DNA of 64,000 nucleotides from a virus. Taxonomy: Duplodnaviria > Caudoviricetes. Positions 2,663 through 34,834 of the stretch are shown piece by piece. Below the pieces are notes generated by a model that saw only the letters and a list, made by a program, of their open reading frames with translations, was not told where the DNA came from and ran no database searches. The DNA is taken from the IMG/VR virus record IMGVR_UViG_3300045391_006539; one strand, 5' to 3'. Position 1 is the first letter of the stretch. Every line of letters starts with the position of its first letter. A program made the position numbers and the translations under genes.

Positions 2663-3662
2663 GTGGGTCAAGGAAGCGCTCGCGCCAGCAACCCTCGCGG
2701 CGATGAGCACGGCAGTCAAAGGCTTGGGGGCCGGGGCTGGGGTGGGCGGCCTGCTCGGCGCTGGTGCCGGTGGAGCCCTCGGGGCAGTCCAAGGGTACCG
2801 GCACCAGCGCCAGCACGGAGCCGACGTCGGTCACGCCCTCGCCGGGGGTCTGAGGGGAGCGCTTCCTGGCATCGGCGCCGGCGCCCTGGCAGGTGCAGGG
2901 GTCGGTGGTATCGCTGGGGCTTTGAAGCCAATGCAAGCGCTGGCCATGGGTCAGAAGCCCGGTCTCTTGCAAAGCGCGAGCCACTTCGGCCAGCGTCAAG
3001 TCCATGCCCTCACGGGCGTTGGCGGGGCCCAGTACGCGCGCTCGGTGGGCGGAGGCGCTCACGATGCCGTCGAGCGCTACGAGGCAGCCAGGAAGGCCGT
3101 GGACGCCGTTCACGAGCTGCACCCAGACCGGGTCCCGGCCATGCGCGAGTTCACCAAGGCCCGACAGTGGCGCGACGCCGCGCTCGAGAGCGAGCGTCAG
3201 GGTATTACCAGCTTGCCGGGCTATGCCAAGGCGCTCTGGAAGAACCCGGCCGATGCCGTGGCGGCTGGAGTCAAGGACCAGTGGCACAGCATGGGTACTG
3301 GGGGACGGGCGCTCATGTATGGCCTGCCCGCCCTCAGCGTGGCGGGCGAGCTCGCCCACTCCGAGGACGAGTCGGGTAAGGGCAAGGGCCGCTTCCAGCG
3401 CGCGGGTGAGATGCTCGGCACGGCGACGGGCGCCCTCGCACCTTTGCCCATCGTCGGTGACCTCGCCTTTGGTGGGGCGCTCTCGGGCAGCTTGGGACAG
3501 GTCGGCAAGCGTCTCGACACCCGCTCCGCGCTCCGCAATTTGCAGAAGCGTCGGGGTGAGCAGGTGTCGCTCCCGCCCGAGCCACGCGGCGAGACGACAC
3601 CGAGCGAGTACATCGCGAGCGACAGGGCCTCAGGGGTCATCCCAGAAAGCGTCACGGCATGA
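2655..3662 (+). CDS. Glycine-zipper-rich putative internal virion/ejection protein
   Basis: VKEA followed by GLGAGAGVGGLLGAGAGGALGA and further GxxxG arrays; overlaps the portal start. Confidence 0.55.
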   Translation: MPEWVKEALAPATLAAMSTAVKGLGAGAGVGGLLGAGAGGALGAVQGYRHQRQHGADVGHALAGGLRGALPGIGAGALAGAGVGGIAGALKPMQALAMGQKPGLLQSASHFGQRQVHALTGVGGAQYARSVGGGAHDAVERYEAARKAVDAVHELHPDRVPAMREFTKARQWRDAALESERQGITSLPGYAKALWKNPADAVAAGVKDQWHSMGTGGRALMYGLPALSVAGELAHSEDESGKGKGRFQRAGEMLGTATGALAPLPIVGDLAFGGALSGSLGQVGKRLDTRSALRNLQKRRGEQVSLPPEPRGETTPSEYIASDRASGVIPESVTA

Positions 3663-5686
3663 GTTTCGTCGGCAGTATCTCGGCAGGCACGGCTGGTAGT
3701 CCTGGCCGCTTCATGGCGCAGACCCGGGGGCGGGTACAGGGCTCCGTCGCGAACGGGGTGAACTACCCGAGTCCGTTCTTCGACGTCGCTCATACCTATC
3801 TACCCGTCACCATCAAGCAGCTCTTTCGCTGGTGTCGGTACTACTTCCTGACCAATCCGCTCATCAACGCGACGGTCTTCAAGCTGTCCGAGTATCCCAT
3901 CACGGACATCATCATCGAGCACCCCGAGCCGAAGGTGCGGCATCGTTGGGAAGAGTACTTTCAGGACCACCTGCGCTTCCGCGCATTCCAGGTCGAGTGC
4001 GGTCTCGACTACCACGCTTACGGCAACATGCTCGGCTCGCTCGGGTTCCCGTTCAAGAAGTACCTCAGCTGCCGAGTCTGTGGCTTCAAGGAGCGGGCGG
4101 ACAAGATTCGCCAGCACTGGACCTTCACGAATACGGCCTTTCGCTTGACGTGTCCCACGTGTGGGCAGACGGGTGATGCCTCGGCGCGCGATATTTACTA
4201 CCGCAACGCGAGCGGCATCAACCTCATCCGCTGGAACTGCGAGCACGTCGAAATCAACTACAACGACGCGACCGGCGAGACGACGCACTTCTACACCATC
4301 CCGCCGCAGGTGAAGAACGACATCACCATCGGCAAGAAGGACATCGTCGAGAGCATCCCGCAGGTCTTCATCGAGGCCATCCGCCAGCAGAAGGGCATCG
4401 TCTTTTCGAAGGACAACCTCTTCCACATGAAGCGGGCGACGCTCGCCCAGCAGGACCGTGGTTGGGGCATCCCACTCATCCTGCCGGTGTTGAAGGACGC
4501 CTTCTACCTGCAAATCATGAAGAAGGCGCAGGAGGCCATCCTGCTCGAGCACATCGTGCCACTGCGCGTGCTCTTCCCCCAGGCAGGTTCTGGTTCGAGC
4601 GACCCGTATACCAGTGTGAACCTCGTCGACTGGCGCGACCACGTCGCGACCGAGATTGCACGCTGGCGTTATGACAATAACTACATACCTATTCTCCCTC
4701 TACCTATTGGCAATCAGACCATTGGTGGTGATGGCAGAGCTCTACTCCTTACTCAGGAGATTCAAATCTGGTCTGAGCAGATGATGGTGGGCATGGGCGT
4801 GCCCAAAGAGTTCCTGCTCGGCGGCATGAGCTACGCTGGCACCAACGTCTCCATGCGCATGCTGGAGAACGCCTTCATCGGCTACATCCTGCGCCAGAAG
4901 CAGATGGCGAACTGGGTCATGCAGCAGGTCTCGGCATTCATGGGCTGGCCTCGAGCGCAGGTGCGCTTCAAGCCGTTCAAGATGGCCGATGACATCCAGC
5001 GCAAGGCCTTCCTGTTCCAGCTCAACCAGGCCAACAAGATTTCCGACACCACGCTCCTCGCCGACTGCGACCTCAATCAGGAGGATGAGGACGAAGTGAT
5101 GATTCGCGAGACGTCCAAGCGTTTGCAGGCAACCAAGCTGCAGCAAATCGCCATGGCGCAGATTCAGGGCGAGGCCTCGGTCGTCATGGCCAAGTTCCAG
5201 GCCAAGGCGCAGCAGGTTTCCCAGGCGGTCCTGATGACCCCGCCGGCGCCGGGTGAGCCCGGGGCAGAGCAGGAGATGATGAACCAGGCCATGCAGGGGC
5301 AGGCGGCCCCACCACAGCTGCCTGCGGGCACACAGAGCCCGCTCAATGCGGGGCAGCAGGCAGGCGTCCAGCCCGCTCCTGATAGCCTCGCCGAGGCCGA
5401 CCTCAATGCCCAGGCGCAACAGGGTGTGGACATCCACCAGCTCGCCACCATGCTGGCCGAGCAGTATCTGTCGCTCGGTGCCGACGAGCAGCAAATGGCG
5501 CTCCAGAATCTCCAGGCTCAGAGTCCCGAGCTCGCGGAGCTGGTCTTGCAGGAAGTCCACCGCATGCAGGCACAGGGCATGGGTCCACAGCAGATGCCTG
5601 GGGCGCTCGGCGCGAGCGTCTCCCAGGTGGACACTAGACCTTTGCCCGAGCAGCGGGGACCTCGTCGCATGGCTGCATCCGTATGA
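3659..5686 (+). CDS. Portal protein (putative) with zinc-ribbon insertion and Gln-rich C-terminus
   Basis: 675 aa. Portal-like N-terminus (YYFLTNPLINATVFKLSEYP), GWGIPLILPVL, MGVPKEFLLGG; CRVC/CPTC insertion; head-gene context. Confidence 0.7.
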   Translation: MSFVGSISAGTAGSPGRFMAQTRGRVQGSVANGVNYPSPFFDVAHTYLPVTIKQLFRWCRYYFLTNPLINATVFKLSEYPITDIIIEHPEPKVRHRWEEYFQDHLRFRAFQVECGLDYHAYGNMLGSLGFPFKKYLSCRVCGFKERADKIRQHWTFTNTAFRLTCPTCGQTGDASARDIYYRNASGINLIRWNCEHVEINYNDATGETTHFYTIPPQVKNDITIGKKDIVESIPQVFIEAIRQQKGIVFSKDNLFHMKRATLAQQDRGWGIPLILPVLKDAFYLQIMKKAQEAILLEHIVPLRVLFPQAGSGSSDPYTSVNLVDWRDHVATEIARWRYDNNYIPILPLPIGNQTIGGDGRALLLTQEIQIWSEQMMVGMGVPKEFLLGGMSYAGTNVSMRMLENAFIGYILRQKQMANWVMQQVSAFMGWPRAQVRFKPFKMADDIQRKAFLFQLNQANKISDTTLLADCDLNQEDEDEVMIRETSKRLQATKLQQIAMAQIQGEASVVMAKFQAKAQQVSQAVLMTPPAPGEPGAEQEMMNQAMQGQAAPPQLPAGTQSPLNAGQQAGVQPAPDSLAEADLNAQAQQGVDIHQLATMLAEQYLSLGADEQQMALQNLQAQSPELAELVLQEVHRMQAQGMGPQQMPGALGASVSQVDTRPLPEQRGPRRMAASV

Positions 5687-10426: not shown

Positions 10427-10512
10427 TAGTCCTCCGATGTAGTTATTCCCGAATCAGGCCTCTTCCTTGCTGATGCAGAAGGCCGTGGGTTACCCTGGTG
10501 CGCGAGTCATCC

Positions 10513-13500
10513 ATGGCGTACCTAGACCATCAAGAAGCGTACGAGGACTTCAAGCAGTCGGTGCTCGAGGGCATCCGCAGCCACTTCCCAGTGACGGGAA
10601 GTCAGCAGAGCGTCGAGCTCAAGAACCTCGAGGTCAAGGACCTCGAGCCGGGCTCCGACGACATCCGTGGACAGCACGCGGCCAAGGTCCAGGGTGGTAG
10701 CTGGTCGAGTCCCGTCTACGCCACGCTGGTGATGAAGAACAAGGCCGGCGCGGTGGTGCAGGAGAAGACGATGCGCATCGCCGAGATTCCGCGTGTCACC
10801 AGACGCTACAGCTACATCGTCGATGGCAATGAGTATCAGGTCGACTCACAGTGGCAGCTCAAGAGCGGCGTCTACGCCCGCCGGCGTGAGAATGGCGAGC
10901 TCGAGAGCCGCTTCAACACGCCCAACAAGGGCGAGTTCAAAATCATCTTCGACCCGACGACGAAGCAGTTCAACATGCACCGGGGCAAGGCCGAGACCAT
11001 CGCGGTCTATCCGCTCATGAAGGCCATGGGCATCGATGACGATGCTCTGGAGAAGAGCTGGGGTAAGGAGGTACTCGCTGCCAACAAGAACGCTCGTGGC
11101 ATGGCGGGCGCGCTCACGAAGTTCTACAAGGCAGACCGCCGGGGTGACCCTGCCGACCACGCCGAGGCACTCAAGTACTTCCAGCAGACGATGGCAGACA
11201 GCCAGCTCGACTCGGCCGTGACGAAGACCACGCTCGGCAAGTCCTTCAGCAGCGTCGAGGGTGACACCTTGCTGCGAGCGACGGACAAGCTCATCAAGGT
11301 CCAGGGTGGCGCTCCCGAGGACGACCGGGACAGCCTCGAGTTCAAGAAGCTCCGTACGACTGGGGACTACGCCTACGACCGTCTCACGGACTGGATGACG
11401 AAGCGCTCCATTGGTGCACGCATGGCGCGTCAGGTGAACAAGGCGACCGACATCCGTCAGGTCGTCAAGTTCAACATGCTGAACGACCCTATCAAGAAGA
11501 CCTTCAAGACCAACTCGGCGAGTCGTCAGGCGAGTCAAATCAATCCGCTCGAGATGGCCGCTGCAGCCCAACAGACTACCATCATGGGGCCCGGCGGCAT
11601 TCAGAACACGCGCGTCATCGACAACACCATCAGCCTCAAGCTGGTGAATCCGAGCCACCTCGGTTTCCTCGACCCCGTCAAGACCCCGGAGAACGAGAAG
11701 ACTGGTATCATCCTGCGTCTGCCTACGGGCGTGAAGAAGGTCGACGGCGAGGCGAAGGTACCTCTCTACAACATCAAGACGGGCAAAATCGACTACCTCG
11801 GTCCGACGGAGTTCGGGCAGCAAAACGTGGTGCTCCCCGACCAGGTCACTTGGGAGAATGGCAAGCCCAATCCCATCTCCAGTGCCGTGAAAGCGAGTAC
11901 CATCGGCAACAAGCTCGGCGAGGTCAAGTTCAAGGACGCGCAGTACGTGATGCGCCACCCGTCTCAGCTCTTCAGCCTGACGACGAACCTCATCCCGTTT
12001 CTCGGCAGCAATTCTGGTAACCGTGCGACGTACGCTGGCGGTCAGATGGAGCAGGCGGTGAGTCTCAAGCACCGCGATGCGCCTCTCGTGCAGGTGGGCA
12101 CGGGCGTCAAAGACCCACACATCGATAGCTTCGAGGGCATCATGGGTCGACAGGCAGGGCACGTGTCCCTGCACTCGGGCGAGGTCGTCAAGGTGAGTAA
12201 GGATGCCGTCGCCGTCAAGATGGCCAATGGCAAGCTGCATGAGGTCCAGCTCTACGACAACTTCCCACTCAACGACCCGAAGAGCATGCTCTACTCGACG
12301 CCGACCGTGAAGGTGGGTGACAAGGTCAAAGCGGGTGACTCCGTTGCAGATACCAATTTTACGAAGGGTGGGCGCCTCGCGCTCGGCACCAACCTACGTG
12401 TGGCTTACATTCCCTACAAGGGCTACAACTTCGAGGATGGCGTCGTCATCAGCAAGAGCGCGTCCGAGAAGCTCACGAGCGAGCATCTCTACAAGGAGAG
12501 CACCCGTATCACGGATGAGACCGTTCGTGATGTGAAGAAGTTCCGTATTCAACATGCAGGCGCATTCGACGACAAGCAATACGACAAGCTCGACGACAAA
12601 GGTGTGGTCAAGATAGGCACCAAGGTTTTGCCGGGAGACCCGCTCGTGCTCGGCATGACGCCGTATAAAATCAAGGACCGCATGGGCATCGCTGCCGTAC
12701 GCAAGAGTCTGTCGGGACAGCACACCGACACGAGCCTGCGCTGGAAGAGCGACTACGCCGGTGAGGTGGTGGCCGTCCACGAGAAACCGGATGGTACGGT
12801 CGCCGTGCACGTGCGAACCGAGGAGCCCATGCAGGTCGGTGACAAGATTGCCGGCCGTTATGGCAACAAGGGCATCGTCACTCAGGTCATCGACGACGAC
12901 AAGATGCCGAAGACCAAGGATGGTAAGCACATCGAGGTCGCGCTCAACCCGAGCGGTGTACCAGGGCGCATGAACATCGGCCAGGTGCTGGAGACGGCTG
13001 CGGCGAAGATAGCGCTGAAGACGGGCAAACCCTACATCGTCAACAACTTCGACGGCTCGAGCGCCGTGGAGAAGGTGAAGAAGGAGCTCGAGAAGCACGG
13101 CCTCTCCGACCAGGAGGAACTCATCGACCCGGAGACGGGCCATTCCCTGGGCAAGGCACTGGTCGGCCCTCAGCACATGCTCAAGCTCGTGCACCAGGTG
13201 GACAAGAAGGTCTCGGTCCGTTCGGGTATGGCACCCCTCGAAGGGTCTGGGGAGACCGTCGAGAAGTACGACAGCAACCTCATCCCGAGTGGCACGGGCA
13301 AGGTCGGCGCCCAGTCCATCGGACACAACGGTCTCTACACCCTGCTCGCCCACGGCGCCAAGGCCAACATCCGCGAGATGCAGACCTGGAAGAGCGAGGG
13401 CCCCGACAAGGAGACCAACCTCGCCAAGAAATGGCCGAGTCAACACATCCAAGTCTGGGGTGCCATCCAGAGTGGTGAGTCGCTGCCGACCCCAACGCCC

Positions 13501-16500
13501 ACCTTCAGCTTCCACAAGTTCGGCGAGCTGCTCCGCGGTGCTGGCATCAACATGGAGAAGCAGGGCAACCAGCTCAAGCTCCTGCCCTTCACTGACAAGC
13601 AGACCCTCGCGCTCTCGAATGGCGAATTCAAGAAGCCGCACATGCTGACGGACGCCCGTCTCGACGACAAGGGTGAGCTCCGACCGTACTCGGGTGGTCT
13701 CTTCGACCCGCGCATCACGGGCGGCCATGGGGGCAGGGGCTGGGGTCACATCACTTTGCCCGAGCCGGTGCCCAACCCAGTCTTCGAGGGTGCCATCCGC
13801 AAGCTCACGGGTCTCTCCCAGAAGGACTACGATGACCTCGCTGGCGGCATGCGTGCGCTCGGGAAGAGCGGCAAGTTGGTCGAGCTCAATACGCCAGGCT
13901 CGGTCACTGGTGGTACAGCACTCAAGCAGATGCTCGACGACATCGACCCGAAGAAGGAGCTCGCCAAGGCGGAGAAGGAGCTCGCGGGCATGAAGCTCAC
14001 GAGCAGCATTGCGCATGGCGCTTCGACCCAGAAGGTCGATGCGCTCGTGAAGAAAATCAAATACCTGCGTACGCTCGACCAGGTTGGCATGAAGCCGAGC
14101 GAGGCGTACATCATCAAGCACTTGCCCGTCATCCCGCCGGCACTACGTCCGCCGGCGCTCATGAACGGCGACGTCAAGTGGGACGACCTCAACGGGCTCT
14201 ACCAGAACCTCGGGCAGCTGGTCACGCGCATGAAGGACCCGACGCTCGAGAAGAGCCTGACCGACAAGGGCAAGATGGAGCTCCGGAGCGACATCTACGA
14301 TGGCGTCAAGGCCATCATGGGTCTCGATAAGCTCACGGATGACAAGCAGAAGAAGGGCATCCTCCACCAGATTGCCAACAACGGCAATCAACCGAAGCAT
14401 GGCTTCTTCCAGGCGACGCTCATGAAGCGCAAGCAGGACCTGACCATGCGCTCGACCATCATCCCGGAGCCGTCGCTGGGTCTGGACGAGATTGGTCTGC
14501 CCAGGGACAAGGCCCTGTCTCTCTACAAGCCGTTCGTGGTGCGGAAGTTGGTGGAGATGGGCGCCGCGCGTAGTCCCCTGTCTGCCCAGCAGCTCATCGC
14601 CGACAAGGACAAGAGCGTCTACCGAGCGCTCGAGCTCGCGACGTCCGAGCGGCCCGTGCTCATCAAGCGCGACCCGGCGCTGCACAAGCACAGCGTCCAG
14701 GCCTTCAAGCCACGGCTGGTGCAGGGCATCGCCGTGCGCATCCACCCGCTCACTACTAGCGGCTTCAACGCCGACTTCGATGGTGACACCATGAGTGCCT
14801 ACGTGCCCATCAGCGATGAGGCCGTGAAGGAAGCCCGGGACATGTTCCCGAGCAACAATCTCTACAATGAAGCAACGGGCAAGGTCATCTACAAGCCCAC
14901 GCTCGAGGGTGCACTGGGTCTGTTCAAGCTCTCCCGCGTCACCGGCGACAGTGGCAAGAGCTATACCAGCATGGCCGAGGCCCTCAAGGCCGTGAAGGGC
15001 GGGGGTCTACCCATTGACAAGACCATCACCGTCGCCGGTCAGAAGACGACGCCGGGACGCCTGCTCATCGCCAGCGCTCTGCCCCAGCAGATGCAGAAGA
15101 AGTACATGAACGCAGACCCCAAGATGCTGGTCGATGGCAAGGGTCTCGATGCGCTCTTCGACGAGCTCGCCAAGAACCACAAGGCCGAGTTCGGCGTGGC
15201 GGCGAACCGTCTCAAGGACCTGGGCAACGGCGCGGCCTACGGCTCCATCATGGTGTCGAACTCGGGCAATGATGGACCGCGCGCCATTGCTGCCGCCGAG
15301 GGTCACACCAAGCGCGAGTTCATCCCCATACCCACGCACTCGCTCAGTCTCGACGACTTCATGGTCGACAAGGGTCTACGCCAGAAGCACGTCTCTTCAG
15401 CCCAGCGCCAGGTGGACTCCATTCAGAAGTCTCGTATGACCCCGGCGGAGAAGGAACGCAAGACCGTGGGGGTCTGGCAGAAGATGATGACGGACCTGAC
15501 TTCCGAGCATCTCGCCAAGCACGAGAAAGACCCGAGCAACCTCGCGCTCATGGTGCAGGCAGACGTCAAGCCCAGCAAGACACAGTACCGACAGATGGTG
15601 CTCGCTCCCGGCATCCTCGAAGATGCGGCGGGCAAGCCCATCGCCATCCCCGTCATCAAGAGCTACGCCGAGGGTCTCGACCTCGCGGGCTACTGGATTC
15701 AGTCGAGTGGTGCACGTGGCGGCACCATCAAAAAAGTGCAAGAGGTCAGAGACCCTGGTGCATTTAGCAAACAGCTGATGCAGACCACCATGGGCTCGGC
15801 GCTCGTGGCTGAGGAAGATTGCGGCACCCAGCGTGGTGTGAGCATGAGTGTGGGGCACCGTGACGTACACGACCGGGTGCTCGCGGCAGATTTCAACGCC
15901 AAGGGTATGACGATTCCAAAAGGGACCGTCCTATCTCCCGACGTCGTCGCGAAGATTCGTGCGCTCGATAAAGACTCGAGCGTCCTCGTCCGTTCGACCC
16001 TGAAGTGCGAACACGAGAAAGGCGTGTGTCAGAAGTGTGCGGGGGTCAGTCCGAATGGCGGCTTCTACCGCATTGGTACAAACCTCGGCGTCATTGCGGC
16101 GCAGGCGCTCGGCGAGCGCAGCATCCAGCTCACGCTCAAGGCATTTCACTCGGGTGGTGTGAGCACGGGTGGCAGTGGGACCATGAACAGCTTCAAGCGC
16201 GTCGAGGACCTGACCAATCTACCCTCGACCATCGCCGACTCGGCGACGCTCGCCATGCAAGGAGGGACTATCGAGAAGCTGGAGAGCGACGCGACGGGCA
16301 CCAAGGTCTGGATTGGTGGCAAGGCACACCACATCGGCAAGGACCGTGCGGGTCAGCTCCTCAGCAAGCCACTGGCTGGTGTGAACACCAGTTGGTCACC
16401 GCCCAAGGTGGGCATGAAGGTCGAGGCGGGGCAAGTCCTCAGCGACCCGACTCGCTCCTTCGTCAACCCTCACGACCTCTACAAGGCCACCGGCAGCATG

Positions 16501-16971
16501 GAGCGGGTTCAGAACTTCCTGACCGACGAGCTGCACGGCATCTACCAGAGCGAGGGCGTCCGCCGCCAGAACGTCGAGACCGTGGTGCGCTGCATGGGGC
16601 AGCTCACCAAGGTGCGGGACTCGGGTGACGCGGAGGGAGTGCTGAAGGGCGAGTATCGAAACGCATCTCACATCCGAGCCATCAACAAGGAGCTCGCCCG
16701 TCAGGGCAAGCGCCCCGTCGAGCATTCGCCCATCCTCAAGGGTATCGATATCTTGCCGCGCGAGATGCAGGAAGATTGGATGGCCAAGCTCATGCATAAC
16801 CACCTGAGCCAGACCATCTTGCAGGCTGCAGCAACGGGCGCGGTCTCTGACATCCACGGCACGCATCCCGTACCCGGCATCGCTTTTGGTGCGGAGTTCG
16901 GACGCACGAAGAAGGACTCTTTGAAGCCAGGTCTAGGTCATCTACGAAGTGCTCCGGATTATGGGTACTGA
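10513..16971 (+). CDS. Single-chain multisubunit-type (double-psi beta-barrel) DNA-directed RNA polymerase, beta+beta' fusion
   Basis: Beta motifs GDKIAGRYGNKG, LNPSGVPGRMNIGQ, MLKLVHQVDKK. Beta' motifs GLFDP, WGHITL, KRDPALHK, catalytic NADFDGD (14767-14787), EEDCGT, CEHEKGVCQKC, trigger loop AAQALGERSIQLTLKAFHSGG. Confidence 0.95.
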   Translation: MAYLDHQEAYEDFKQSVLEGIRSHFPVTGSQQSVELKNLEVKDLEPGSDDIRGQHAAKVQGGSWSSPVYATLVMKNKAGAVVQEKTMRIAEIPRVTRRYSYIVDGNEYQVDSQWQLKSGVYARRRENGELESRFNTPNKGEFKIIFDPTTKQFNMHRGKAETIAVYPLMKAMGIDDDALEKSWGKEVLAANKNARGMAGALTKFYKADRRGDPADHAEALKYFQQTMADSQLDSAVTKTTLGKSFSSVEGDTLLRATDKLIKVQGGAPEDDRDSLEFKKLRTTGDYAYDRLTDWMTKRSIGARMARQVNKATDIRQVVKFNMLNDPIKKTFKTNSASRQASQINPLEMAAAAQQTTIMGPGGIQNTRVIDNTISLKLVNPSHLGFLDPVKTPENEKTGIILRLPTGVKKVDGEAKVPLYNIKTGKIDYLGPTEFGQQNVVLPDQVTWENGKPNPISSAVKASTIGNKLGEVKFKDAQYVMRHPSQLFSLTTNLIPFLGSNSGNRATYAGGQMEQAVSLKHRDAPLVQVGTGVKDPHIDSFEGIMGRQAGHVSLHSGEVVKVSKDAVAVKMANGKLHEVQLYDNFPLNDPKSMLYSTPTVKVGDKVKAGDSVADTNFTKGGRLALGTNLRVAYIPYKGYNFEDGVVISKSASEKLTSEHLYKESTRITDETVRDVKKFRIQHAGAFDDKQYDKLDDKGVVKIGTKVLPGDPLVLGMTPYKIKDRMGIAAVRKSLSGQHTDTSLRWKSDYAGEVVAVHEKPDGTVAVHVRTEEPMQVGDKIAGRYGNKGIVTQVIDDDKMPKTKDGKHIEVALNPSGVPGRMNIGQVLETAAAKIALKTGKPYIVNNFDGSSAVEKVKKELEKHGLSDQEELIDPETGHSLGKALVGPQHMLKLVHQVDKKVSVRSGMAPLEGSGETVEKYDSNLIPSGTGKVGAQSIGHNGLYTLLAHGAKANIREMQTWKSEGPDKETNLAKKWPSQHIQVWGAIQSGESLPTPTPTFSFHKFGELLRGAGINMEKQGNQLKLLPFTDKQTLALSNGEFKKPHMLTDARLDDKGELRPYSGGLFDPRITGGHGGRGWGHITLPEPVPNPVFEGAIRKLTGLSQKDYDDLAGGMRALGKSGKLVELNTPGSVTGGTALKQMLDDIDPKKELAKAEKELAGMKLTSSIAHGASTQKVDALVKKIKYLRTLDQVGMKPSEAYIIKHLPVIPPALRPPALMNGDVKWDDLNGLYQNLGQLVTRMKDPTLEKSLTDKGKMELRSDIYDGVKAIMGLDKLTDDKQKKGILHQIANNGNQPKHGFFQATLMKRKQDLTMRSTIIPEPSLGLDEIGLPRDKALSLYKPFVVRKLVEMGAARSPLSAQQLIADKDKSVYRALELATSERPVLIKRDPALHKHSVQAFKPRLVQGIAVRIHPLTTSGFNADFDGDTMSAYVPISDEAVKEARDMFPSNNLYNEATGKVIYKPTLEGALGLFKLSRVTGDSGKSYTSMAEALKAVKGGGLPIDKTITVAGQKTTPGRLLIASALPQQMQKKYMNADPKMLVDGKGLDALFDELAKNHKAEFGVAANRLKDLGNGAAYGSIMVSNSGNDGPRAIAAAEGHTKREFIPIPTHSLSLDDFMVDKGLRQKHVSSAQRQVDSIQKSRMTPAEKERKTVGVWQKMMTDLTSEHLAKHEKDPSNLALMVQADVKPSKTQYRQMVLAPGILEDAAGKPIAIPVIKSYAEGLDLAGYWIQSSGARGGTIKKVQEVRDPGAFSKQLMQTTMGSALVAEEDCGTQRGVSMSVGHRDVHDRVLAADFNAKGMTIPKGTVLSPDVVAKIRALDKDSSVLVRSTLKCEHEKGVCQKCAGVSPNGGFYRIGTNLGVIAAQALGERSIQLTLKAFHSGGVSTGGSGTMNSFKRVEDLTNLPSTIADSATLAMQGGTIEKLESDATGTKVWIGGKAHHIGKDRAGQLLSKPLAGVNTSWSPPKVGMKVEAGQVLSDPTRSFVNPHDLYKATGSMERVQNFLTDELHGIYQSEGVRRQNVETVVRCMGQLTKVRDSGDAEGVLKGEYRNASHIRAINKELARQGKRPVEHSPILKGIDILPREMQEDWMAKLMHNHLSQTILQAAATGAVSDIHGTHPVPGIAFGAEFGRTKKDSLKPGLGHLRSAPDYGY

Positions 16972-17003: not shown

Positions 17004-18263
17004 GTGCCCCTACCCGGCGTAGCTACGTACTCTCAGGCTGGACCTGACCAGAGACACCCCTTTCGAAACGCGTGGACGCAACCGGAAGGGGGCTCTGGCG
17101 CGTTCGTCCAGGAGTGCCAAGTCACCGATATCAATCTCAAGCTCTGGACGGTCGACGTCGTCACCAAGTTCGACCAGAAGCAATACCTGAACATTCAGAT
17201 TGCTTCTCCGTACATGCACTTCAACCAAGGTGAGGGCTTCTATGCGATGCCGGACATCGGCGCGAAGTGCCAGGTCTGTATCCCCAGTGATGGCCCACCA
17301 CCCTTCGTACTCGGCTTCATCATGCCGCAGGAGACGATAGATGGCGCGAGTGCGGACGCTCCCCAAGGAACAGATGGGCAGAAGGGAGGCGTCACCCAGA
17401 CCGCCACTACCGCCTCCTTCGCTGGTGGCCGTAAGCGGGCCAAGCCTGGAGACATGGGCGTCGCTTCCAGAGACGGGAGCTTTGTACGTCTCCACCGCGG
17501 TGGGGTCTTGCAGATTGGTGCTTCAGAGCTCGCTCAGCGCATTTACATCTCTCTACAAAACGTCATCACGGATATCAGCCAGAACTACCGTCACCAGAAC
17601 ACTGGCGGCAGCGTCAACTGGTTCATCTCCCCCGGAGAGTCTGTCACTAACCCTCCTACCACAGCACGGTATACCTATCGAGTTCTGGCCAATGAGGAGA
17701 AGGCTACCGTCCGTGTTGCCGTCGGACGAGTGAGCGACGTCTTGAAGGAACCGCTCGAGGAAGTTCGGAGCGACCTGACGCAGCTCGGTATCGATGGCAA
17801 GAGCATCGTCGCAGAGGTCATCATCGCGCCCGAGACCATTGCGGCAGAGGATGGGGCTCTCGGCAAGGACACTCCAGGTGCCAGCGTGCTTCGCTACTTC
17901 TTCGACAAGGCGGGCAATGCCCTCTTGCGGATGGAGGGCAGCGTCGTCGCGAGGGTCGGCAAGCGTCTGCGCCTGCGTGTCGATGACAACGTCGAGGTCT
18001 TCGGCAAGAAGGACATGACCATGACGTTCGATGGGGTCGGCCGCCTCGCAGCGCAGGGCGGACTCGACCTCTCGGGAGCCGTCGTTCGGGTCAACGGTGG
18101 CAGCAAGGCTGTGGCTACCGTGGGTTCGACCGTGATGATGACCGTGGTCGCGCCCATCCCCATCACGGTCGTCGTCGCCGGCGTGCCGAGCCCGGGAACC
18201 ATTCTCACCGGCGCGGTCTTCAGTGGGGTCATTACTAGCGGCAACCCGACCTTCCTCGCTTGA
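17004..18263 (+). CDS. Baseplate central spike protein (gpV/Gp5 OB-fold-like) with PAAR-like C-terminus
   Basis: TVDV...GEGFYAMPDIGAKCQV OB-fold pattern, beta-strand repeats, terminal GVITSGNPTFLA. Confidence 0.55.
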   Translation: MPLPGVATYSQAGPDQRHPFRNAWTQPEGGSGAFVQECQVTDINLKLWTVDVVTKFDQKQYLNIQIASPYMHFNQGEGFYAMPDIGAKCQVCIPSDGPPPFVLGFIMPQETIDGASADAPQGTDGQKGGVTQTATTASFAGGRKRAKPGDMGVASRDGSFVRLHRGGVLQIGASELAQRIYISLQNVITDISQNYRHQNTGGSVNWFISPGESVTNPPTTARYTYRVLANEEKATVRVAVGRVSDVLKEPLEEVRSDLTQLGIDGKSIVAEVIIAPETIAAEDGALGKDTPGASVLRYFFDKAGNALLRMEGSVVARVGKRLRLRVDDNVEVFGKKDMTMTFDGVGRLAAQGGLDLSGAVVRVNGGSKAVATVGSTVMMTVVAPIPITVVVAGVPSPGTILTGAVFSGVITSGNPTFLA

Positions 18264-23147: not shown

Positions 23148-23388
23148 GACCGAAGCTCAGAAACCGCTTCTCGAAGACGAGGTCTTTCAGCATCCAGCCC
23201 GCCTCCTTCGTGTGCCAGCGCATGAAGTGACGCACCATGGGTCTCATCTTGACGGGGATGACCTCGCGCGCCTGGAAGTAGATTAGGTATCCGTCCTCCA
23301 GTGTCTGGATGACCGGGTTGTAGAATATCTCGTACGCTCTCTGTAGAGAGGCGAGCAGGTCTTCCACATAGGTATCTACTTTCATCAT
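23101..23388 (-). CDS. Small hypothetical protein
   Basis: 95 aa of globular-looking sequence filling the gap; its start overlaps the terminase start at CATG. Confidence 0.5.
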   Translation of the reverse strand: MMKVDTYVEDLLASLQRAYEIFYNPVIQTLEDGYLIYFQAREVIPVKMRPMVRHFMRWHTKEAGWMLKDLVFEKRFLSFGLMPREQRRACRRTHP

Positions 23389-26266
23389 GGCAGCAGCCGA
23401 AGTCTATCTCGACAACGACGAAGAGGAACTCCCAGATGTCTCTGCGAGCCATCCGGATTACATCTGGCAGCCTGAAGAGGACCCCGAGGAGCCGGACCTG
23501 CTAATCCGCGAGGAAGCCATTGCGAAGCTACCCAAACTACCACGGGTCAAGCCGAGCGTCTTCACGCAGACTGCCTTTCTCATGCCCACCGAGGTGGGTG
23601 AGGGTGACCAGCAGACCATAGAGCTCAGGAACTTCTCGTTCAAGGAGCGCCCGCACCTGCGCCGCATCTACGATACGGCGTGTCGTCGTGTATTGCTCAT
23701 GTGCGCTCGTCAGGTGGAGAAGTCCACCCTGCTCGGCAATATCTCCATCGCGTACTCGTGCATCGTCCCCGGCTACCGCACGCTCTACGTCTCGCCCTCT
23801 GCCACTCAGACCAAGACCTTCAGCGCCGACCGCATCAAGGAGCCGCTCGAGACCAGCACCTTCCTTCGTCAGTTCACGACGAAGATGCTCTCCATGAACA
23901 TCCTGGAGAAGCAGTTCATCAATCGCAGCAAGATTACCCTGCGCTACGCGTTCCTCAACGCCGACCGCTGCCGAGGAATTCCGGCATGGGCTCTGTTCCT
24001 GGATGAGATTCAGGACATCCTCGCCGACAACATCCCCGTCATCGAGGCCTGCCAGAACCACGCGCCCAAGCGCTGGCGTCGCAACATCTACAGCGGCACT
24101 CCGAAGTCCCTCGACAACACCATCGAGACTTACTGGTCGTCGATGAGCACGATGAACGAGTGGGTCGTGCCCTGTGAGGGGTGCAACAACTGGAACATCC
24201 TGGGCGAGAAGAACATCGGCAGGAAGGGCATCGTCTGTACCAAGTGCGGCAAGTACCTGAACGCTCAGCACCCACGAGCTCAGTGGGCCGCGCAGCGCCA
24301 GTTCGACGACGTGAAGGTCCCCTTCGAGGGCTACCGCATCAGTCAGTTGATGGTGCCCTGGGTGGACTGGAACGAAATTCTCATTGCCTATGAGAAGCAC
24401 GGGCGTGACAAGTTTTATAACGAGACGCTCGGCATTTCGTACGACTCGGGCATGCGCCCGCTCACTCGGGCGCAGGTCATGGCGGTTTGCAACCCCGAGA
24501 TTACGATGTATGACTCGAAGCAGCGCGAGTACTACAAGCAGCTCAGCGCTGCTCAGCCCATCTTCGCTGGCATTGATTGGGGATGTCATGACGAAGACAC
24601 CCGCATCCTGACGAGGGATGGCTTCAAGTACTTTCGAGACCTGGGTGACAAGGACGAGGTTGCTCAGTGGGACCCAGACACTCGGGAGATGACTTACACC
24701 AAACCGAAGGCCGTGACCGTGAGGGATTGGGACCAGCCCCTTCTGCACTTCAAGACCAAGGGTGGTCTCGACATGATGTTGACCCACACCCATCGCATGC
24801 GGGTGGGCGCCCAGCAGGGGGAGCACTGGCTGACGGAATCTGCAGGTGAGCTTGCTGAGCGGGGTGGCAACGTGAAGTTCGTGGGCCACGTCGAGTGGAA
24901 GGGCGACTTCGATGCCGTGGGCTTCATCTTGCCAGGTCTACCAAAGAGTCCTGGCTACAAGGGTTCCGAGGACGTTGAGTACAGAATGGACGACTGGCTC
25001 GAGTTCCTCGGCTATGTCCTGTCCGAGGGTGGTGTTTGCCTGAAGAAGAACAAGGTAGGTGAGCTCGTTCCTTACTGCGTGAAGATGTCACAGCGGGAGA
25101 CAGTGAGTCCAGAGAAGTACGAGAAGATTCGTATGTGCATGGTGCGTATGGGTCTCAACTTCACGGCATTTCCCAACCCGAAGACGGGCGATGTCAACTG
25201 GACCATCTACGGTAAGCAGCTCTGGAGCTGGCTTGCCAAGCATGTAGGGATGACGGGTGACGTGAAGCGCATCCCCGCCATGTTCAAGCGTCTCTCTAAG
25301 CGGCAACTGCGCATTCTGTTCGACGCCATGCTCCTCGGTGACGGTTACGTAGACCCACGGGATGGTTGCACGGGTGGCGCCTACTACTCGACGTCGAAGA
25401 AACTCTGCGAGGATTTTCAGGAACTCTGCATCAAGTTGGGTCTACGTTGCGTGGTGCGTCTGCACAAACCAGCCGCAGGCAATCGCAAGGCTCGCTACCG
25501 TGCATCTTGGTCTGTGGGCAGGGACTATACATTCAACAAGCCCAGCACCAGCATCGAGCGAGTCCCCTACAAGGGCAAGGTCTACTGCTGCTCGGTGCCC
25601 ACGGGCTACATCGTGACCGAGCGCAATGGTTGCATTGCGTATCAGGGCAACACGGGCGAACATTCGTACACGGTGCTCACCCTGGCCACGTACATCGGGC
25701 GCAAGTTCCGCTGCTTCTACATCCACCGCTTCGTCGGCGAGGAGACGGAGCCCGACCGGCAGATAGAGCTCATCATCGAGACCTTGCGCTACTACAACGT
25801 GGCGCTCATCGGTTGTGACTATGGTGGTGGTCACTACCCGAACGACAAACTCGTTCGTGTCTTCGGTCCCAACAAGGTCTGGAAGTATCAGTACTCCAAC
25901 ACGCCGAAGCAGGCATACAAGTGGAACCCGCAGCTCCTACGCTTCATGCTCCACCGCACCGAAGTGATGAGCCAAATCTTCAATGCCATCAAGCGCCGGC
26001 GTGAATGTGAGTTTCCTCGCTGGGAGGAGTTCGAGAAGCCCTACGCTCAGGACTTCCTCAACATCTACAGTGAGGACAACAAGATGACGCGCATCATTCA
26101 GTACAAGCATGCGCTCGACAAGCCCGACGACAGCTTCCATTCGTTCCTCTACTGCTGGCTGGTCTCGATGCTGAAGTTCCGTCGCCCAGACATCATCAAG
26201 CCCAACCGCGAGGACGCGAAGGGCAATCAGGTGCCCATCTATACGGGGCCTGTCGAGCAGTCGTGA
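23387..26266 (+). CDS. terL: Terminase large subunit (GpA-like), intein-containing
   Basis: Walker A ARQVEKST, Walker B LFLDEIQD, SGTPKS, CEGC/CTKC Zn finger, nuclease GIDWG and PDDSFHS. Confidence 0.9.
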   Translation: MAAAEVYLDNDEEELPDVSASHPDYIWQPEEDPEEPDLLIREEAIAKLPKLPRVKPSVFTQTAFLMPTEVGEGDQQTIELRNFSFKERPHLRRIYDTACRRVLLMCARQVEKSTLLGNISIAYSCIVPGYRTLYVSPSATQTKTFSADRIKEPLETSTFLRQFTTKMLSMNILEKQFINRSKITLRYAFLNADRCRGIPAWALFLDEIQDILADNIPVIEACQNHAPKRWRRNIYSGTPKSLDNTIETYWSSMSTMNEWVVPCEGCNNWNILGEKNIGRKGIVCTKCGKYLNAQHPRAQWAAQRQFDDVKVPFEGYRISQLMVPWVDWNEILIAYEKHGRDKFYNETLGISYDSGMRPLTRAQVMAVCNPEITMYDSKQREYYKQLSAAQPIFAGIDWGCHDEDTRILTRDGFKYFRDLGDKDEVAQWDPDTREMTYTKPKAVTVRDWDQPLLHFKTKGGLDMMLTHTHRMRVGAQQGEHWLTESAGELAERGGNVKFVGHVEWKGDFDAVGFILPGLPKSPGYKGSEDVEYRMDDWLEFLGYVLSEGGVCLKKNKVGELVPYCVKMSQRETVSPEKYEKIRMCMVRMGLNFTAFPNPKTGDVNWTIYGKQLWSWLAKHVGMTGDVKRIPAMFKRLSKRQLRILFDAMLLGDGYVDPRDGCTGGAYYSTSKKLCEDFQELCIKLGLRCVVRLHKPAAGNRKARYRASWSVGRDYTFNKPSTSIERVPYKGKVYCCSVPTGYIVTERNGCIAYQGNTGEHSYTVLTLATYIGRKFRCFYIHRFVGEETEPDRQIELIIETLRYYNVALIGCDYGGGHYPNDKLVRVFGPNKVWKYQYSNTPKQAYKWNPQLLRFMLHRTEVMSQIFNAIKRRRECEFPRWEEFEKPYAQDFLNIYSEDNKMTRIIQYKHALDKPDDSFHSFLYCWLVSMLKFRRPDIIKPNREDAKGNQVPIYTGPVEQS
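24584..25651 (+). mobile_element. Intein with LAGLIDADG homing endonuclease (356 aa)
   Basis: Starts CHDEDTRILTRDG; block B LTHTHRM; FLGYVLSEGG and LFDAMLLGDG; ends VTERNGCIAYQGN before Thr+1. Confidence 0.92.
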
Positions 26267-27000: not shown

Positions 27001-27090
27001 CGCTCGAGTGAGACACATCGAGGCCCTCGCGTCTAGGCCCCTTCCTTCCCTTGACTACATGCCACGGTATATTCTTACCCCGGAGGACCG

Positions 27091-33718: not shown

Positions 33719-34834
33719 ATGGTTTCAGGTCGCATGCTCAACGAGTCCTTTGCTCAGAAGCTGAACACGGCTGATGGCAAAGAGAAAGTCGCCGAATTCG
33801 GCGGCGCCTACATCCGGGACAAGCTGCGCGAGGTTTCCTTCGTGCGCAAAATCATCCCCCCGGAGAACGTGACGCGCGCGGATTGCCAGCGCTCCGTCAA
33901 CCACGACACGCTCGTGAAGATTGTCGATATCGAGCCCAAGAGCCGCGCGATGACGGTGACCTTCCGTGGCGCTCCGTCGGCTCGCTTCATCCGCGGCGAC
34001 CGCGCCGAGGTGGCCTTCTTCACCATCTCCAGCGAGATGTTCCAGAAGACCGAGCAGGAGCTCCTCGCCTACGAGATGCCCATCACGAAAATCATCGAGG
34101 AGAACTCGGTGAAGGACATCCAGGAAATCGAGGACCGCGAGTTCGTCATCCACATCGAGGCGGCAGTCCAGGCGCTGCAGACCGAGGCCAACAGCGGCAC
34201 CCCGGCGGCGCTGGCAGCGAGCACCATCGGCACGACGGTGGAGTTCTCCATCATCAAGGGCGAGCTCGCCCGCGCCGATTCGGCAGACACGGCGACGGTG
34301 CAGCCCATCCAGCGGCCCGACATCGTCAACCTGTTCAAGCTGCTCGACACCAACCGTCTGCGTTGTGAGCGCCTGCTCATGACGGAGCCGGACTGGGACG
34401 ACCTGCTGCAGTGGACGGTCGAGGACTTCGGCGACAAGATTCAGTCCGAGACGGCCATCGATGGCTACAAGTACAACACGGTGCTGGGGCGGCCTTACAT
34501 CCGCACCATCAAGACGGACATCCTGCGTCCGGGCAACGTGTATGCCTTCACGAAGCCGGAGTTTTTCGGGAAGTTCTACGTCCTGAACAACACCAAGTTC
34601 TACATCGACAAAGTCGCGAACACCATCACGTTTCAGGCGTGGGAAGACATCGCGATGTCGGTCATCAACGTGGCGTCCGTGCGCAAGCTGGAGCTCTACT
34701 CCGGCAATGCCAACCCGAACGCGGGTAACCAGAGCCTCATCGCCAACTTCGTGCCGGTGGACGAAGACCAGCTCGGCGCAGTGAACAACCGCGTGAGCGC
34801 CGGCCTCAAGTTCCCGTCGGTGACCCAGTACTGA
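33719..34834 (+). CDS. Major capsid protein (HK97-fold, inferred)
   Basis: 371 aa with very biased codon usage; follows protease/scaffold/decoration genes and precedes a terminator; IRDKLREVSFVRKIIPP N-terminus; helix EIEDREF. Confidence 0.75.
   Translation: MVSGRMLNESFAQKLNTADGKEKVAEFGGAYIRDKLREVSFVRKIIPPENVTRADCQRSVNHDTLVKIVDIEPKSRAMTVTFRGAPSARFIRGDRAEVAFFTISSEMFQKTEQELLAYEMPITKIIEENSVKDIQEIEDREFVIHIEAAVQALQTEANSGTPAALAASTIGTTVEFSIIKGELARADSADTATVQPIQRPDIVNLFKLLDTNRLRCERLLMTEPDWDDLLQWTVEDFGDKIQSETAIDGYKYNTVLGRPYIRTIKTDILRPGNVYAFTKPEFFGKFYVLNNTKFYIDKVANTITFQAWEDIAMSVINVASVRKLELYSGNANPNAGNQSLIANFVPVDEDQLGAVNNRVSAGLKFPSVTQY

Follow-up and report, generated by a model that had tools for sequence, protein, structure and literature searches.

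A large uncultured soil phage encodes both large subunits of a bacterial-type RNA polymerase, beta and beta', as one protein, and a very large phage family has kept this arrangement. We analysed a window of 64 kb (64,000 nucleotides) from its ~200-kb genome, in which the polymerase gene (P0001) occupies 10513..16971 on the + strand as one ORF of 2,152 codons plus stop. Judged by its sequence and by structural models, the product is very probably the catalytic core of the phage's own DNA-dependent RNA polymerase, functional in its fused form. The reading that we favour, and to which we assign a probability of roughly 0.7 as a whole, is that this fused core works with a phage sigma factor, is insensitive to rifampicin and is probably carried in the virion.

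One continuous chain with beta and beta' in order

The open frame runs from 10498 to 16971 (+), and the ATG at 10513 yields a protein of 2,152 aa whose N-terminus (MAYLD) agrees with the family consensus start MAxLD. Pfam places the beta domains ahead of the beta' domains, with Rpb2_3 (residues 340-403) and Rpb2_6 (591-904, E 7e-61) followed by Rpb1_1 (1165-1240), Rpb1_2 (1307-1444, E 8e-24) and Rpb1_5 (1721-2040). Both double-psi barrels, the NADFDGD motif, the bridge helix, the trigger loop, the second zinc site, the clamp helices and the flap are all present in canonical order. A preliminary description of this DNA had proposed a single-chain beta-beta' enzyme with all core motifs, with its junction near 13500-13640, a deleted beta' N-terminal zinc-binding domain and a diverged rifampicin-cluster region; Pfam and the alignments bear out each of these points, as detailed below.

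The beta module comprises residues 1-1014 (10513..13554, +), as defined by alignment to Salmonella RpoB and by an AlphaFold2 model. The equivalent of rifampicin cluster I (residues 337-348; 11521..11556, +) aligns to RpoB 512-523 with its contact positions substituted, the five cluster I changes relative to Salmonella RpoB being Q513R, D516S, H526A, R529Q and S531T. The fused enzyme would be expected to be insensitive to rifampicin. The beta double-psi barrel motif GDKIAGRYGNKG (residues 776-787; 12838..12873, +) aligns to RpoB 1063-1074, and its K778 and K786 are invariant across 71 family members. The beta C-terminal motif FSFHKF..GINM (residues 998-1014, from nt 13504) is followed by the junction (residues 1015-1033; 13555..13611, +), which contains neither a stop nor a frame change, and then by the beta' N-terminal motif LSNGEFKKP (residues 1034-1042, from nt 13612). 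Beta ends at the counterpart of RpoB residue 1337 (of 1342) and beta' begins at that of RpoC residue ~19, so the linker amounts to only a few residues.

The beta' module spans residues 1034-2152 (13612..16968, +), again assigned by alignment, here to Salmonella RpoC, and by an AlphaFold2 model. At the site of the missing zinc-binding domain (residues 1062-1085, GLFDPRITGGHGGRGWGHI...; 13696..13767, +), RpoC 64-78 and 83-99, with the zinc ligands C70, C72, C85 and C88, lack a counterpart in all five family members aligned. The clamp helices (residues 1222-1270; 14176..14322, +) align to RpoC 261-308 and the catalytic NADFDGD (residues 1419-1425; 14767..14787, +) to RpoC 458-464; its three aspartates (D469, D471 and D473 in the numbering of alignment A4) are invariant in 71 sequences. 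Further along lie the bridge helix, near residue 1733 (RpoC 778), and the second zinc site, which is kept: C1770, C1832, C1839 and C1842 (15820..16038, +) correspond exactly to RpoC C814, C888, C895 and C898. The trigger-loop core LKAFHSGG (residues 1875-1882; 16135..16158, +) aligns to RpoC 932-939, and H927 and G929 of the trigger loop (A4 numbering) are invariant.

Structure prediction is in line with these assignments. AlphaFold2 modelled residues 1-1060 with a pLDDT of 88.0 and a pTM of 0.81, and residues 953-2152 with a pLDDT of 89.2 and a pTM of 0.86. Both high-confidence halves match solved bacterial chains, the first resembling beta (TM 0.74-0.78, E down to 3e-74) and the second beta' (TM 0.74-0.80, E down to 8e-66).

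The enzyme had also been called minimal, which holds in one sense. Its 2,152 aa fall below the beta plus beta' sums of all 58 bacterial pairs sampled (shortest ~2,218 aa, median 2,373 aa; the pairs are slightly underestimated because they were trimmed to the first Met). Compared with the 2,749 aa of Salmonella beta plus beta' it is 597 aa shorter, but most of this shortfall consists of lineage-specific inserts of the Salmonella subunits (RpoB 221-302, 317-352, 939-1048 and 1134-1187; RpoC 947-983, 1019-1039 and 1080-1177).

A family of fused polymerases in phage head modules

Near-full-length homologues fall into more than 120 clusters (53-77% identity, 2,117-2,214 aa), and the fused layout is common to more than 100 clusters at 50% identity, in phage genomes of 170-210 kb. 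The best 150 representatives after 50% clustering all match at E < 1e-149; the majority reach 2,000 aa or more, with the beta' part beginning near residue 1000. Homologues of the same length as the window protein number in the hundreds. Beta and beta' motifs lie in a single frame at 64 of 85 IMG/VR loci, a further 10 have frames of 2,078 aa or longer, and none of the 85 is split at the beta/beta' junction. Every scorable locus that is not cut by a contig end has a continuous junction frame. All five related genomes examined contain a single beta' catalytic locus. The fused forms come from soil, freshwater and marine metagenomes, and the hosts of their split relatives are Salmonella and Vibrio. 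Two of these relatives, Arash and D69, are cultured, whereas the continuous form is absent from the cultured phages in a collection of 50,697 records. We found no published description of the continuous single-chain layout in the literature.

In the phylogeny, the fused family forms a clade (support 98) whose sister is the Arash and D69 enzymes (99), and all 22 sampled bacteria, which represent 10 phyla, are separated from the phage enzymes (100). The tree is a quick LG+G4 search without an archaeal outgroup, with many rows flagged for compositional heterogeneity. Nesting inside a bacterial rpoBC clade, which the preliminary description had named as an outcome that would speak against it, was not seen among these 22 bacteria.

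The gene sits in the head module, with the portal gene on one side and the terminase and capsid genes on the other. The portal protein (3659..5686, +) is 33% identical to Arash portal Gp204 (E 4e-90) and has a weak PHROG portal match. The large terminase subunit (959 aa; 23387..26266, +; PHROG terminase, E 4e-54) carries an insert of ~390 aa and matches Arash Gp1 in two parts, residues 78-369 and 757-922. The major capsid protein (33719..34834, +) is 30% identical to its Arash counterpart Gp226 (E 1e-34). Directly downstream of the polymerase lies a 419-aa gene (17004..18263, +) that adjoins it in 79 of the 85 related loci; this gene has no Pfam or PHROG match, and its language-model features (likeness 0.94-0.96 to Phage_base_V and Gp5_OB clusters) serve as a lead only, to a possible baseplate hub or spike. 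The earlier placement beside spike and head genes thus stands for portal, terminase and capsid, with the spike as a lead. A Pfam scan of the 66 other ORFs of the window found no sigma, alpha or omega domain, as had been reported, and no shared promoter-like motif was found in its intergenic regions.

Virion carriage, assembly and promoter recognition

In the mechanism that we propose, bacterial-type beta and beta' would be made as one polypeptide that forms the phage's own polymerase core. Copies would probably travel in the virion and enter the cell at infection, and transcription would therefore not depend on the host polymerase. Proteomics of Arash, whose enzyme is 31% identical, and gene position bear on this proposal. 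In the Arash particle, the polymerase part Gp206 accounted for 3,516 spectra, the most of any protein, and Gp216 for 1,210 (data of PMC10585845); by our own arithmetic, this corresponds to 2.3 and 2.0 spectra per residue, near-equal values at roughly half the 4.3 of the major capsid protein. The Arash sigma factor Gp10 was also detected in the particle preparation (PMC10585845). Because the Arash enzyme dominates its virion proteome, packaging of the fused enzyme is plausible, and we give it an even chance.

The alternative, a serious one that we place somewhat below even odds, is that the host polymerase reads the early genes, the phage enzyme transcribes only middle or late genes, and the Arash particle signal is carry-over. 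A total of 116 of the 272 Arash proteins scored as 'virion', ribonucleotide reductases and kinases among them; since this set includes clearly non-structural enzymes, carry-over of abundant intracellular proteins is possible, as the authors themselves point out (PMC10585845). With only one polymerase per genome, the enzyme must at least serve later transcription, and gene position alone is weak evidence. Against carry-over stand the top rank of the polymerase in the Arash preparation, the balanced per-residue abundance of its two parts and a head/tail-module position, beside the portal and the spike-like gene, that 79 of 85 loci share.

Assembly poses a separate question. In bacterial enzymes, the beta C-terminus adjoins the beta' N-terminus. 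The covalent beta-beta' link may substitute for the alpha dimer in assembly, and it is fairly likely that the fused polymerase is independent of host alpha. Alpha and omega families gave no match in the same five related genomes, whereas all 14 control genomes gave matches; absence of these genes does not exclude the use of host subunits. It is conceivable, albeit unlikely, that the fused chain needs a host alpha dimer, and perhaps omega, for assembly or for response to regulators. Its fold is bacterial-type throughout, and no phage substitute for alpha or omega was recognised in the five genomes. Hosts are evidently diverse, however (Salmonella and Vibrio for the split forms, with the fused forms coming from soil, freshwater and marine metagenomes), and at ~27% identity to the bacterial subunits conserved alpha contacts are doubtful. 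Moreover, the phage polymerases of the phiKZ and AR9 type are active in the absence of alpha (PMC7598289, PMC7824862), and the covalent link would remove the main need for an assembly platform.

The preliminary description had taken the enzyme to be sigma-independent, a claim that the related genomes do not support. All 10 complete relatives encode a sigma-70-family homologue (E 1e-37 to 9e-73), as do the contigs of two further relatives, G001 and G003, and the gene is a core gene of the lineage. A profile of this family matches SigA, RpoD and RpoS chains over regions 2 to 4 (E 3e-16), and Arash Gp10 matches Sigma70_r3 at 9e-9. The sigma gene of the window's own genome was not seen, presumably because it lies outside the window. 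The clamp helices are the main docking site of sigma region 2 and the flap tip is the other sigma docking site; both the clamp helices and a flap tip are kept in the polymerase. When the beta' clamp segment of a relative was modelled with the sigma-like protein of the same phage, the predicted complex scored 0.71 (best control 0.00), a mark that 58 of 80 solved complexes attained, as against 2 of 110 mismatched pairs. Contacts agreed between runs at 45% or more, partner pLDDT was at least 72, and the predicted interface lies on the clamp helices (the segment equivalent to residues 1222-1270). Because sigma-polymerase complexes are solved, this pass may reflect memorised structures; the prediction shows likeness, not binding. 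The fused polymerase probably works with a phage sigma, and promoters would be recognised through this factor docked on the clamp helices.

A virion enzyme that finds its promoters without sigma, either unaided or with another kind of factor, as in phiKZ and AR9, is improbable by comparison. It would fit the lack of a sigma gene in the 64 kb, the failure of Pfam sigma models alone to detect the factor in the closest relatives, G001 and G002, and the precedent of phiKZ-type phage polymerases that work without sigma (PMC7824862). It would also fit the missing beta' zinc-binding domain, whose absence removes a contact of the bacterial holoenzyme, so that initiation may differ from the bacterial model. 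These points are outweighed by the sigma-70-family gene across the complete genomes, G001, G003 and Arash, by the retained docking sites and the predicted complex, with the caveat on memorised structures, and by the co-occurrence of sigma and polymerase in the Arash particle preparation.

Finally, an artefact or a recent capture, in which host rpoB and rpoC were joined by misassembly or a frameshift or bacterial DNA was binned with the phage, is effectively refuted. One related contig is labelled 'provirus' in IMG/VR and natural rpoB-rpoC fusions occur in some bacteria, but the identical protein occurs on two independent contigs (JGI and Logan data), hundreds of homologues share its length, and it is flanked by portal, terminase and capsid genes of a phage. 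Its identity to any bacterial RpoB/RpoC is only 27-29%, the best 80 matches among 185,579 species genomes are ordinary RpoC, and bacteria are monophyletic against the fused family in the tree.

Comparison with known polymerases

The fused protein shares with bacterial RpoB/RpoC its domain order, catalytic motifs, second zinc site and fold (TM 0.74-0.80), as well as the predicted use of a sigma-70-family partner. It differs in its low identity (27-29%), in lacking the beta' zinc-binding domain, in being encoded in a phage head module and in belonging to genomes without recognisable alpha or omega genes. Natural RpoB-RpoC fusions exist in Helicobacter and Wolbachia, and the beta-then-beta' order of the window protein is the fusion order known to be tolerated in bacteria.

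Like the fused family, phiKZ/AR9-type phages encode two-barrel enzymes without alpha or omega, and one of the phiKZ-type sets travels in the virion to start infection (PMC7598289, PMC7824862). Those enzymes, however, consist of 4-5 polypeptides in two paralogous sets, are far more divergent and lack sigma, whereas the fused family has one chain, one locus per genome and a sigma-family factor. The crAss-like gp66, YonO and the tape-measure-fused P23-45 enzyme (PMC10770324) also carry both barrels on one polypeptide, and those of the crAss-like phages and P23-45 reach the cell from the virion. These enzymes have diverged so far that beta/beta' profiles fail to detect them (PMC7481178), and most accessory domains are missing; the window protein, in contrast, is found by standard Pfam models (7e-61 and 8e-24) and keeps the full bacterial architecture.

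The mReC lineage (Weinheimer and Aylward 2020, PMC7481178), which had been suggested as a possible match, agrees in part. It comprises metagenomic tailed phages with a compact, recognisably cellular-like beta/beta' outside cellular clades, but the inspected mReC entries of that paper's table all have separate beta (900-1,563 aa) and beta' (899-1,391 aa) genes, unlike the single chain of the fused family. Some mReC contigs carry two polymerase sets, and the filter of that paper demanded two proteins, each of at least 800 aa. The cultured Cobetia phage Carin-5 has a two-gene enzyme in the mReC style, with sigma, beta and beta' in a row in its replication module. In our tree this enzyme falls apart from the fused family, but its long branch makes its placement unsure.

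Closest are the enzymes of Arash (Gp206 and Gp216, with sigma Gp10) and of Vibrio phages D69, D148 and D181, which are ~31-33% identical to the fused protein over 94% of its length. Arash-type phages share the order of portal then polymerase with the window phage, their portal, terminase, capsid and tail genes are homologous, and their sigma-like factor is homologous to that of the fused family. Arash Gp206 (1,525 aa) combines beta with the N-terminal part of beta', and its beta/beta' junction is fused as in the window protein. All four enzymes are divided a single time within beta', around RpoC residue 575-581, with the parts 0.6-4.8 kb apart and small ORFs between them (including a homing endonuclease in D148 and D181), whereas the window chain is continuous.

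A continuous β-β' chain and its catalytic core

In the ORF listing of the window, the longest open frame of the region extends over 10498-16971 (+), and its ATG at 10513 gives a chain of 2,152 residues whose start agrees with the family consensus MAxLD. Pfam places the β domains N-terminally (Rpb2_3 at residues 340-403; Rpb2_6 at 591-904, E 7e-61) and the β' domains C-terminal to them (Rpb1_1 at 1165-1240; Rpb1_2 at 1307-1444, E 8e-24; Rpb1_5 at 1721-2040). Every motif quoted in the preliminary description was located in the chain at the position it had assigned.

We aligned five family members with Salmonella RpoB and RpoC, for which Salmonella and E. coli numbering coincide. The β module reaches RpoB 1337 of 1342 before β' sets in at about RpoC 19, a near-seamless join. 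The NADFDGD magnesium site of the β' double-psi barrel (residues 1419-1425) aligns with RpoC 458-464, and its three aspartates are invariant across 71 family members. Likewise, the GDK..GR.GNKG motif of the β double-psi barrel (residues 776-787) aligns with RpoB 1063-1074, and its lysines K778 and K786 are invariant. Bridge helix and trigger loop are both present, the clamp helices are kept and align to RpoC 261-308, and the flap tip is kept but shortened. The second zinc site is retained exactly (RpoC C814, C888, C895 and C898). The β' zinc-binding domain, by contrast, is deleted as had been proposed: RpoC 64-78 and 83-99, with C70, C72, C85 and C88, lack a counterpart in all five aligned members. 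The reported divergence of the rifampicin region is also borne out, with Q513R, D516S, H526A, R529Q and S531T in cluster I. Together with known resistance mutations, these substitutions predict that the polymerase is insensitive to rifampicin.

The term 'minimal' applies in a relative sense. Relative to Salmonella β plus β', the chain is short by 597 aa, but it lies just ~3-10% below the shortest to the median of 58 other bacterial pairs. Its shortfall against E. coli consists mostly of proteobacterial inserts (RpoB 221-302, 317-352, 939-1048 and 1134-1187; RpoC 947-983, 1019-1039 and 1080-1177).

AlphaFold2 models, built with 71-sequence alignments, covered the chain in two overlapping pieces, residues 953-2152 (pLDDT 89.2, pTM 0.86) and residues 1-1060 (pLDDT 88.0, pTM 0.81). 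In line with the original assignment, Foldseek ranked solved bacterial β' chains top for the former (E 8e-66, TM 0.74-0.80) and solved bacterial β chains top for the latter (E 3e-74, TM up to 0.78). A PDB sequence search also returned bacterial β' chains as the best solved relatives (E 4e-92).

Distribution and placement of the family

A word-indexed search recovered more than 120 clusters at 53-77% identity, nearly all with lengths of 2,117-2,214 aa; a few cluster members of 2,438-2,675 aa bear LAGLIDADG or intein domains. In an exhaustive HMMER search with the β' module, the best 150 representatives (50% clustering) all scored E < 1e-149, and the majority measure 2,000 aa or more, with β' starting at about residue 1000. 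The β and β' motifs share a single frame in 64 of 85 IMG/VR loci; in another 10 the frame is no shorter than 2,078 aa, contig ends truncate seven, and a split at the β/β' junction occurs in none of the 85. The fused feature is real and conserved. Complete fused-form genomes with terminal repeats measure 173-210 kb. Among 185,579 species genomes, the best 80 matches are ordinary RpoC at 27-29% identity, and among β'-length proteins a gap separates the family (at least 35% identity, E < 1e-180) from bacterial β' (29%, E 1e-97). The family looks large, spread across soil, freshwater and marine samples, and almost uncultured.

Many HMMER representatives reach 2,400-4,700 aa, their matches broken into several pieces, and this pattern suggests that mobile elements often insert into the polymerase genes; in the homologues P0008, P0022, P0023, P0055, P0065, P0101 and P0107 (2,476-2,672 aa), a LAGLIDADG/intein domain (PF14528) lies within the gene. 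We also noticed the label 'provirus' that IMG/VR gives to one related contig, G001 (IMGVR_UViG_3300047496_000430, 177 kb), although its appearance is that of a near-complete lytic-type genome; the classifier may have been misled by the bacterial look of the polymerase gene.

The only cultured relatives are the Vibrio phages D69, D148 and D181 and the Salmonella phage Arash, at 31-33% identity. Their polymerase gene is in two parts, one of 1,525 aa (β and the N-terminal part of β') and one of 606 aa (the remaining β'), separated by small ORFs, with a homing endonuclease at this place in D148 and D181. The break falls at RpoC 575-581, where the fused chain and the related loci are continuous. 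The two groups resemble each other in having β joined to the N-terminal part of β', in the order of portal then polymerase, and in homologous portal, terminase, capsid and sigma genes.

In a quick IQ-TREE phylogeny (simple LG+G4 model, 45 rows, 1,987 columns, bacterial and phage sequences without an archaeal or eukaryotic outgroup), 20 fused sequences group in one clade (SH-aLRT 98), with Arash and D69 as its sister (support 99). A long branch (support 100) separates both groups from every one of the 22 bacteria, which represent 10 phyla, so that the nesting within a bacterial rpoBC clade that would have spoken against the preliminary description is not seen in this tree. Since fused and split enzymes alike join β to β' at the junction, the common ancestor of the whole clade probably already had the fusion, and the break inside β' in Arash and D69 appears to have arisen later. 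The position of the clade outside the sampled bacteria bears on the debate over ancient versus derived phage polymerases opened by the study of multi-subunit RNA-polymerase-encoding Caudovirales (mReC; Weinheimer and Aylward 2020, PMC7481178). In the same tree, the rpoB-rpoC of two metagenome-assembled genomes, L100 (labelled Alistipes, Bacteroidota) and L080 (Coriobacteriaceae, Actinomycetota), cluster within Bacillota, probably reflecting contig mis-binning.

Sigma factor, gene neighborhood and possible virion packaging

The preliminary description had proposed a sigma-independent enzyme, and this is its weakest part. Its observation that the window lacks alpha, omega and sigma stands: a Pfam scan of the 66 other ORFs found none, and tblastn with two sigma-like proteins of relatives gave no match in the window. 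Rather, the sigma gene probably lies outside it. Arash Gp10 bears a sigma-factor annotation and a Sigma70_r3 match (9e-9), and sigma-like homologues occur in 10 of 10 complete fused-form genomes, in G001 (E 2e-28, ~107 kb away from the polymerase gene) and in a further related contig, G003, with Sigma70_r4. A profile of ten sigma-like proteins matches SigA, RpoD and RpoS chains over regions 2 to 4 (E 3e-16 to 1e-12). In the closest relatives, the factor escaped Pfam Sigma70_r2 and r4 searches and was recovered by a protein query alone, so we do not treat the Pfam blank as absence. The retained clamp helices and flap tip likewise speak against sigma independence.

When the β' clamp segment of a relative was modeled with its own sigma-like protein, the complex scored 0.71, against 0.00 for the best control; 58 of 80 solved complexes attain this mark, as do 2 of 110 mismatched pairs. 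Contact agreement across the runs was at least 45%, partner pLDDT was at least 72, and the interface lay on the clamp helices. Because such sigma-polymerase complexes are already among the solved structures, the prediction speaks for likeness, not binding. Promoter recognition would most likely proceed through the phage sigma-70-family factor. Among 20 intergenic stretches of the window, several of which may be coding, 8-10-mer sharing brought out no common promoter motif.

Alpha and omega gave no family match in five related genomes, whereas all 14 control genomes were positive. In bacterial enzymes the β C-terminus and the β' N-terminus are adjacent, and natural rpoB-rpoC fusions occur in some bacteria; on these grounds, the covalent β-β' link would plausibly replace the alpha platform. 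The same five related genomes each have a single β' catalytic locus. A search for a T7-like single-subunit polymerase gave no family match in five complete relatives, a result that, being without a positive control, carries no weight.

The window, phage DNA recovered from a soil metagenome, represents about one third of the phage genome; a protein identical to the fused chain is present on a 200,805-bp contig. Of the sequencing runs listed as containing the sequence, two are soil-metagenome DNA and none is RNA. As first described, the polymerase sits inside the virion gene cluster. Portal (3659-5686; 33% identity to its Arash counterpart, E 4e-90), polymerase, large terminase (23387-26266, +) and major capsid protein (33719-34834) are common to the window and Arash in similar order, the latter two again homologous to their Arash counterparts. 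Further matches include several tail/baseplate proteins that are structural according to Arash proteomics. Directly downstream of the polymerase lies a 419-aa gene of unknown family (17004-18263, +), its companion in 79 of 85 related loci, and language-model features offer the lead that it is baseplate hub- or spike-like. A 783-aa gene of unknown family (19311-21662, +) accompanies the polymerase in 74 of the 85, and both could be its delivery partners. PHROG scans of 20 genes near the polymerase were mostly without a match.

Other features of the window are worth recording. With 959 aa, the large terminase exceeds its Arash counterpart (532 aa); the two segments homologous between them, residues 78-369 and 757-922, flank ~390 residues that contain no intein or endonuclease Pfam domain in the window scan and have a PHROG 'PhoH-like' match at residues 372-471. 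The stretch from portal to polymerase contains two genes on the reverse strand (6396-8961, -): an ATPase (7693-8961, -; PHROG 1297) and a neighbor (6396-7706, -) to which the DUF2201 metallopeptidase and VWA-like domains of a pooled Pfam scan probably belong. About 8-28 of 85 related loci have the same pair. Pfam further identified, among the 66 ORFs, a ferritin-like protein, a Cpn10 co-chaperonin and a deoxynucleotide monophosphate kinase. The window also encodes an LPP-type lipoprotein motif and a MerR/excisionase-like HTH protein (26269-27018, -), and contains no tRNA genes.

The proposed packaging of the polymerase in the virion we consider about an even bet, judging from the Arash particle proteome and from the conserved position beside the portal and the spike-like gene. 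In Arash particles, the polymerase part Gp206 gave the most spectra of all proteins (3,516), Gp216, the other part, gave 1,210, and sigma Gp10 was among the proteins detected (PMC10585845). Normalized to length, these counts correspond to 2.3 and 2.0 spectra per residue for Gp206 and Gp216, against 4.3 for the capsid protein. The same data set scored 116 of 272 proteins, ribonucleotide reductases among them, and its authors allow for carry-over (PMC10585845), which may extend to the polymerase.

We assign a probability of roughly one in three to the full reading: that the phages of this family, ~170-210 kb in size, encode a single-polypeptide bacterial-type core, dispense with alpha and omega, pair the core with a phage sigma factor, and carry the enzyme in the particle and inject it, so that they would be free of the host enzyme from the first minute. 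If true, this two-protein holoenzyme would be the simplest known sigma-dependent cellular-type RNA polymerase. Bacterial RNA polymerase requires five chains plus sigma, which makes its expression and engineering awkward. A core that naturally consists of one chain and has its own small sigma would offer a compact model for assembly, for rifampicin insensitivity and for sigma docking without the zinc-binding domain, and a possible orthogonal transcription module. The mechanism is clear and testable, and cultured split-form relatives exist for this purpose.

Comparison with other phage polymerases

Among phage-encoded polymerases of cellular type, the fused chain represents a new architectural variant. 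In the literature covered on mReC, Arash, fused or two-barrel and virion polymerases, itself an incomplete selection, we found no continuous bacterial-type β-β' phage enzyme described, and such an enzyme is also missing from two reviews of jumbo-phage polymerases.

The mReC detection rule calls for one β and one β' match, each of at least 800 aa, and parts 9-10 of the table give two different genes per entry, β of 900-1,563 aa and β' of 899-1,391 aa (PMC7481178). The fused family has one gene and falls outside this two-gene rule, and none of six typical fused lengths is among the protein lengths listed there (PMC7481178). Several mReC contigs in Supplementary Data 2 carry two polymerase sets, roughly 1,360 + 1,005 aa and 1,000 + 900 aa (PMC7481178), reminiscent of phiKZ-like phages with their paired virion and non-virion enzymes. 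In the cultured Cobetia phage Carin-5, which has two genes in mReC style, sigma, β and β' are consecutive in the replication module; in the LG+G4 quick tree it sits on a long branch apart from the fused family.

Enzymes of the phiKZ/AR9 type are built from four to five polypeptides, in two paralogous sets (virion and non-virion) and without sigma, whereas the fused family has one chain, one β' locus per genome and a sigma-family gene in the lineage. One polymerase in place of two sets may show how a single enzyme serves as both injected early and late polymerase, and, should packaging hold, the family would add to the phiKZ-type split enzymes and the crAss/N4-type enzymes a third kind of virion polymerase, independent of both. 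The crAss gp66/YonO type also unites both barrels in one chain. Its similarity to β and β' profiles is undetectable and bacterial accessory domains are absent, whereas the fused chain gives strong Pfam and PDB sequence matches to both β and β'.
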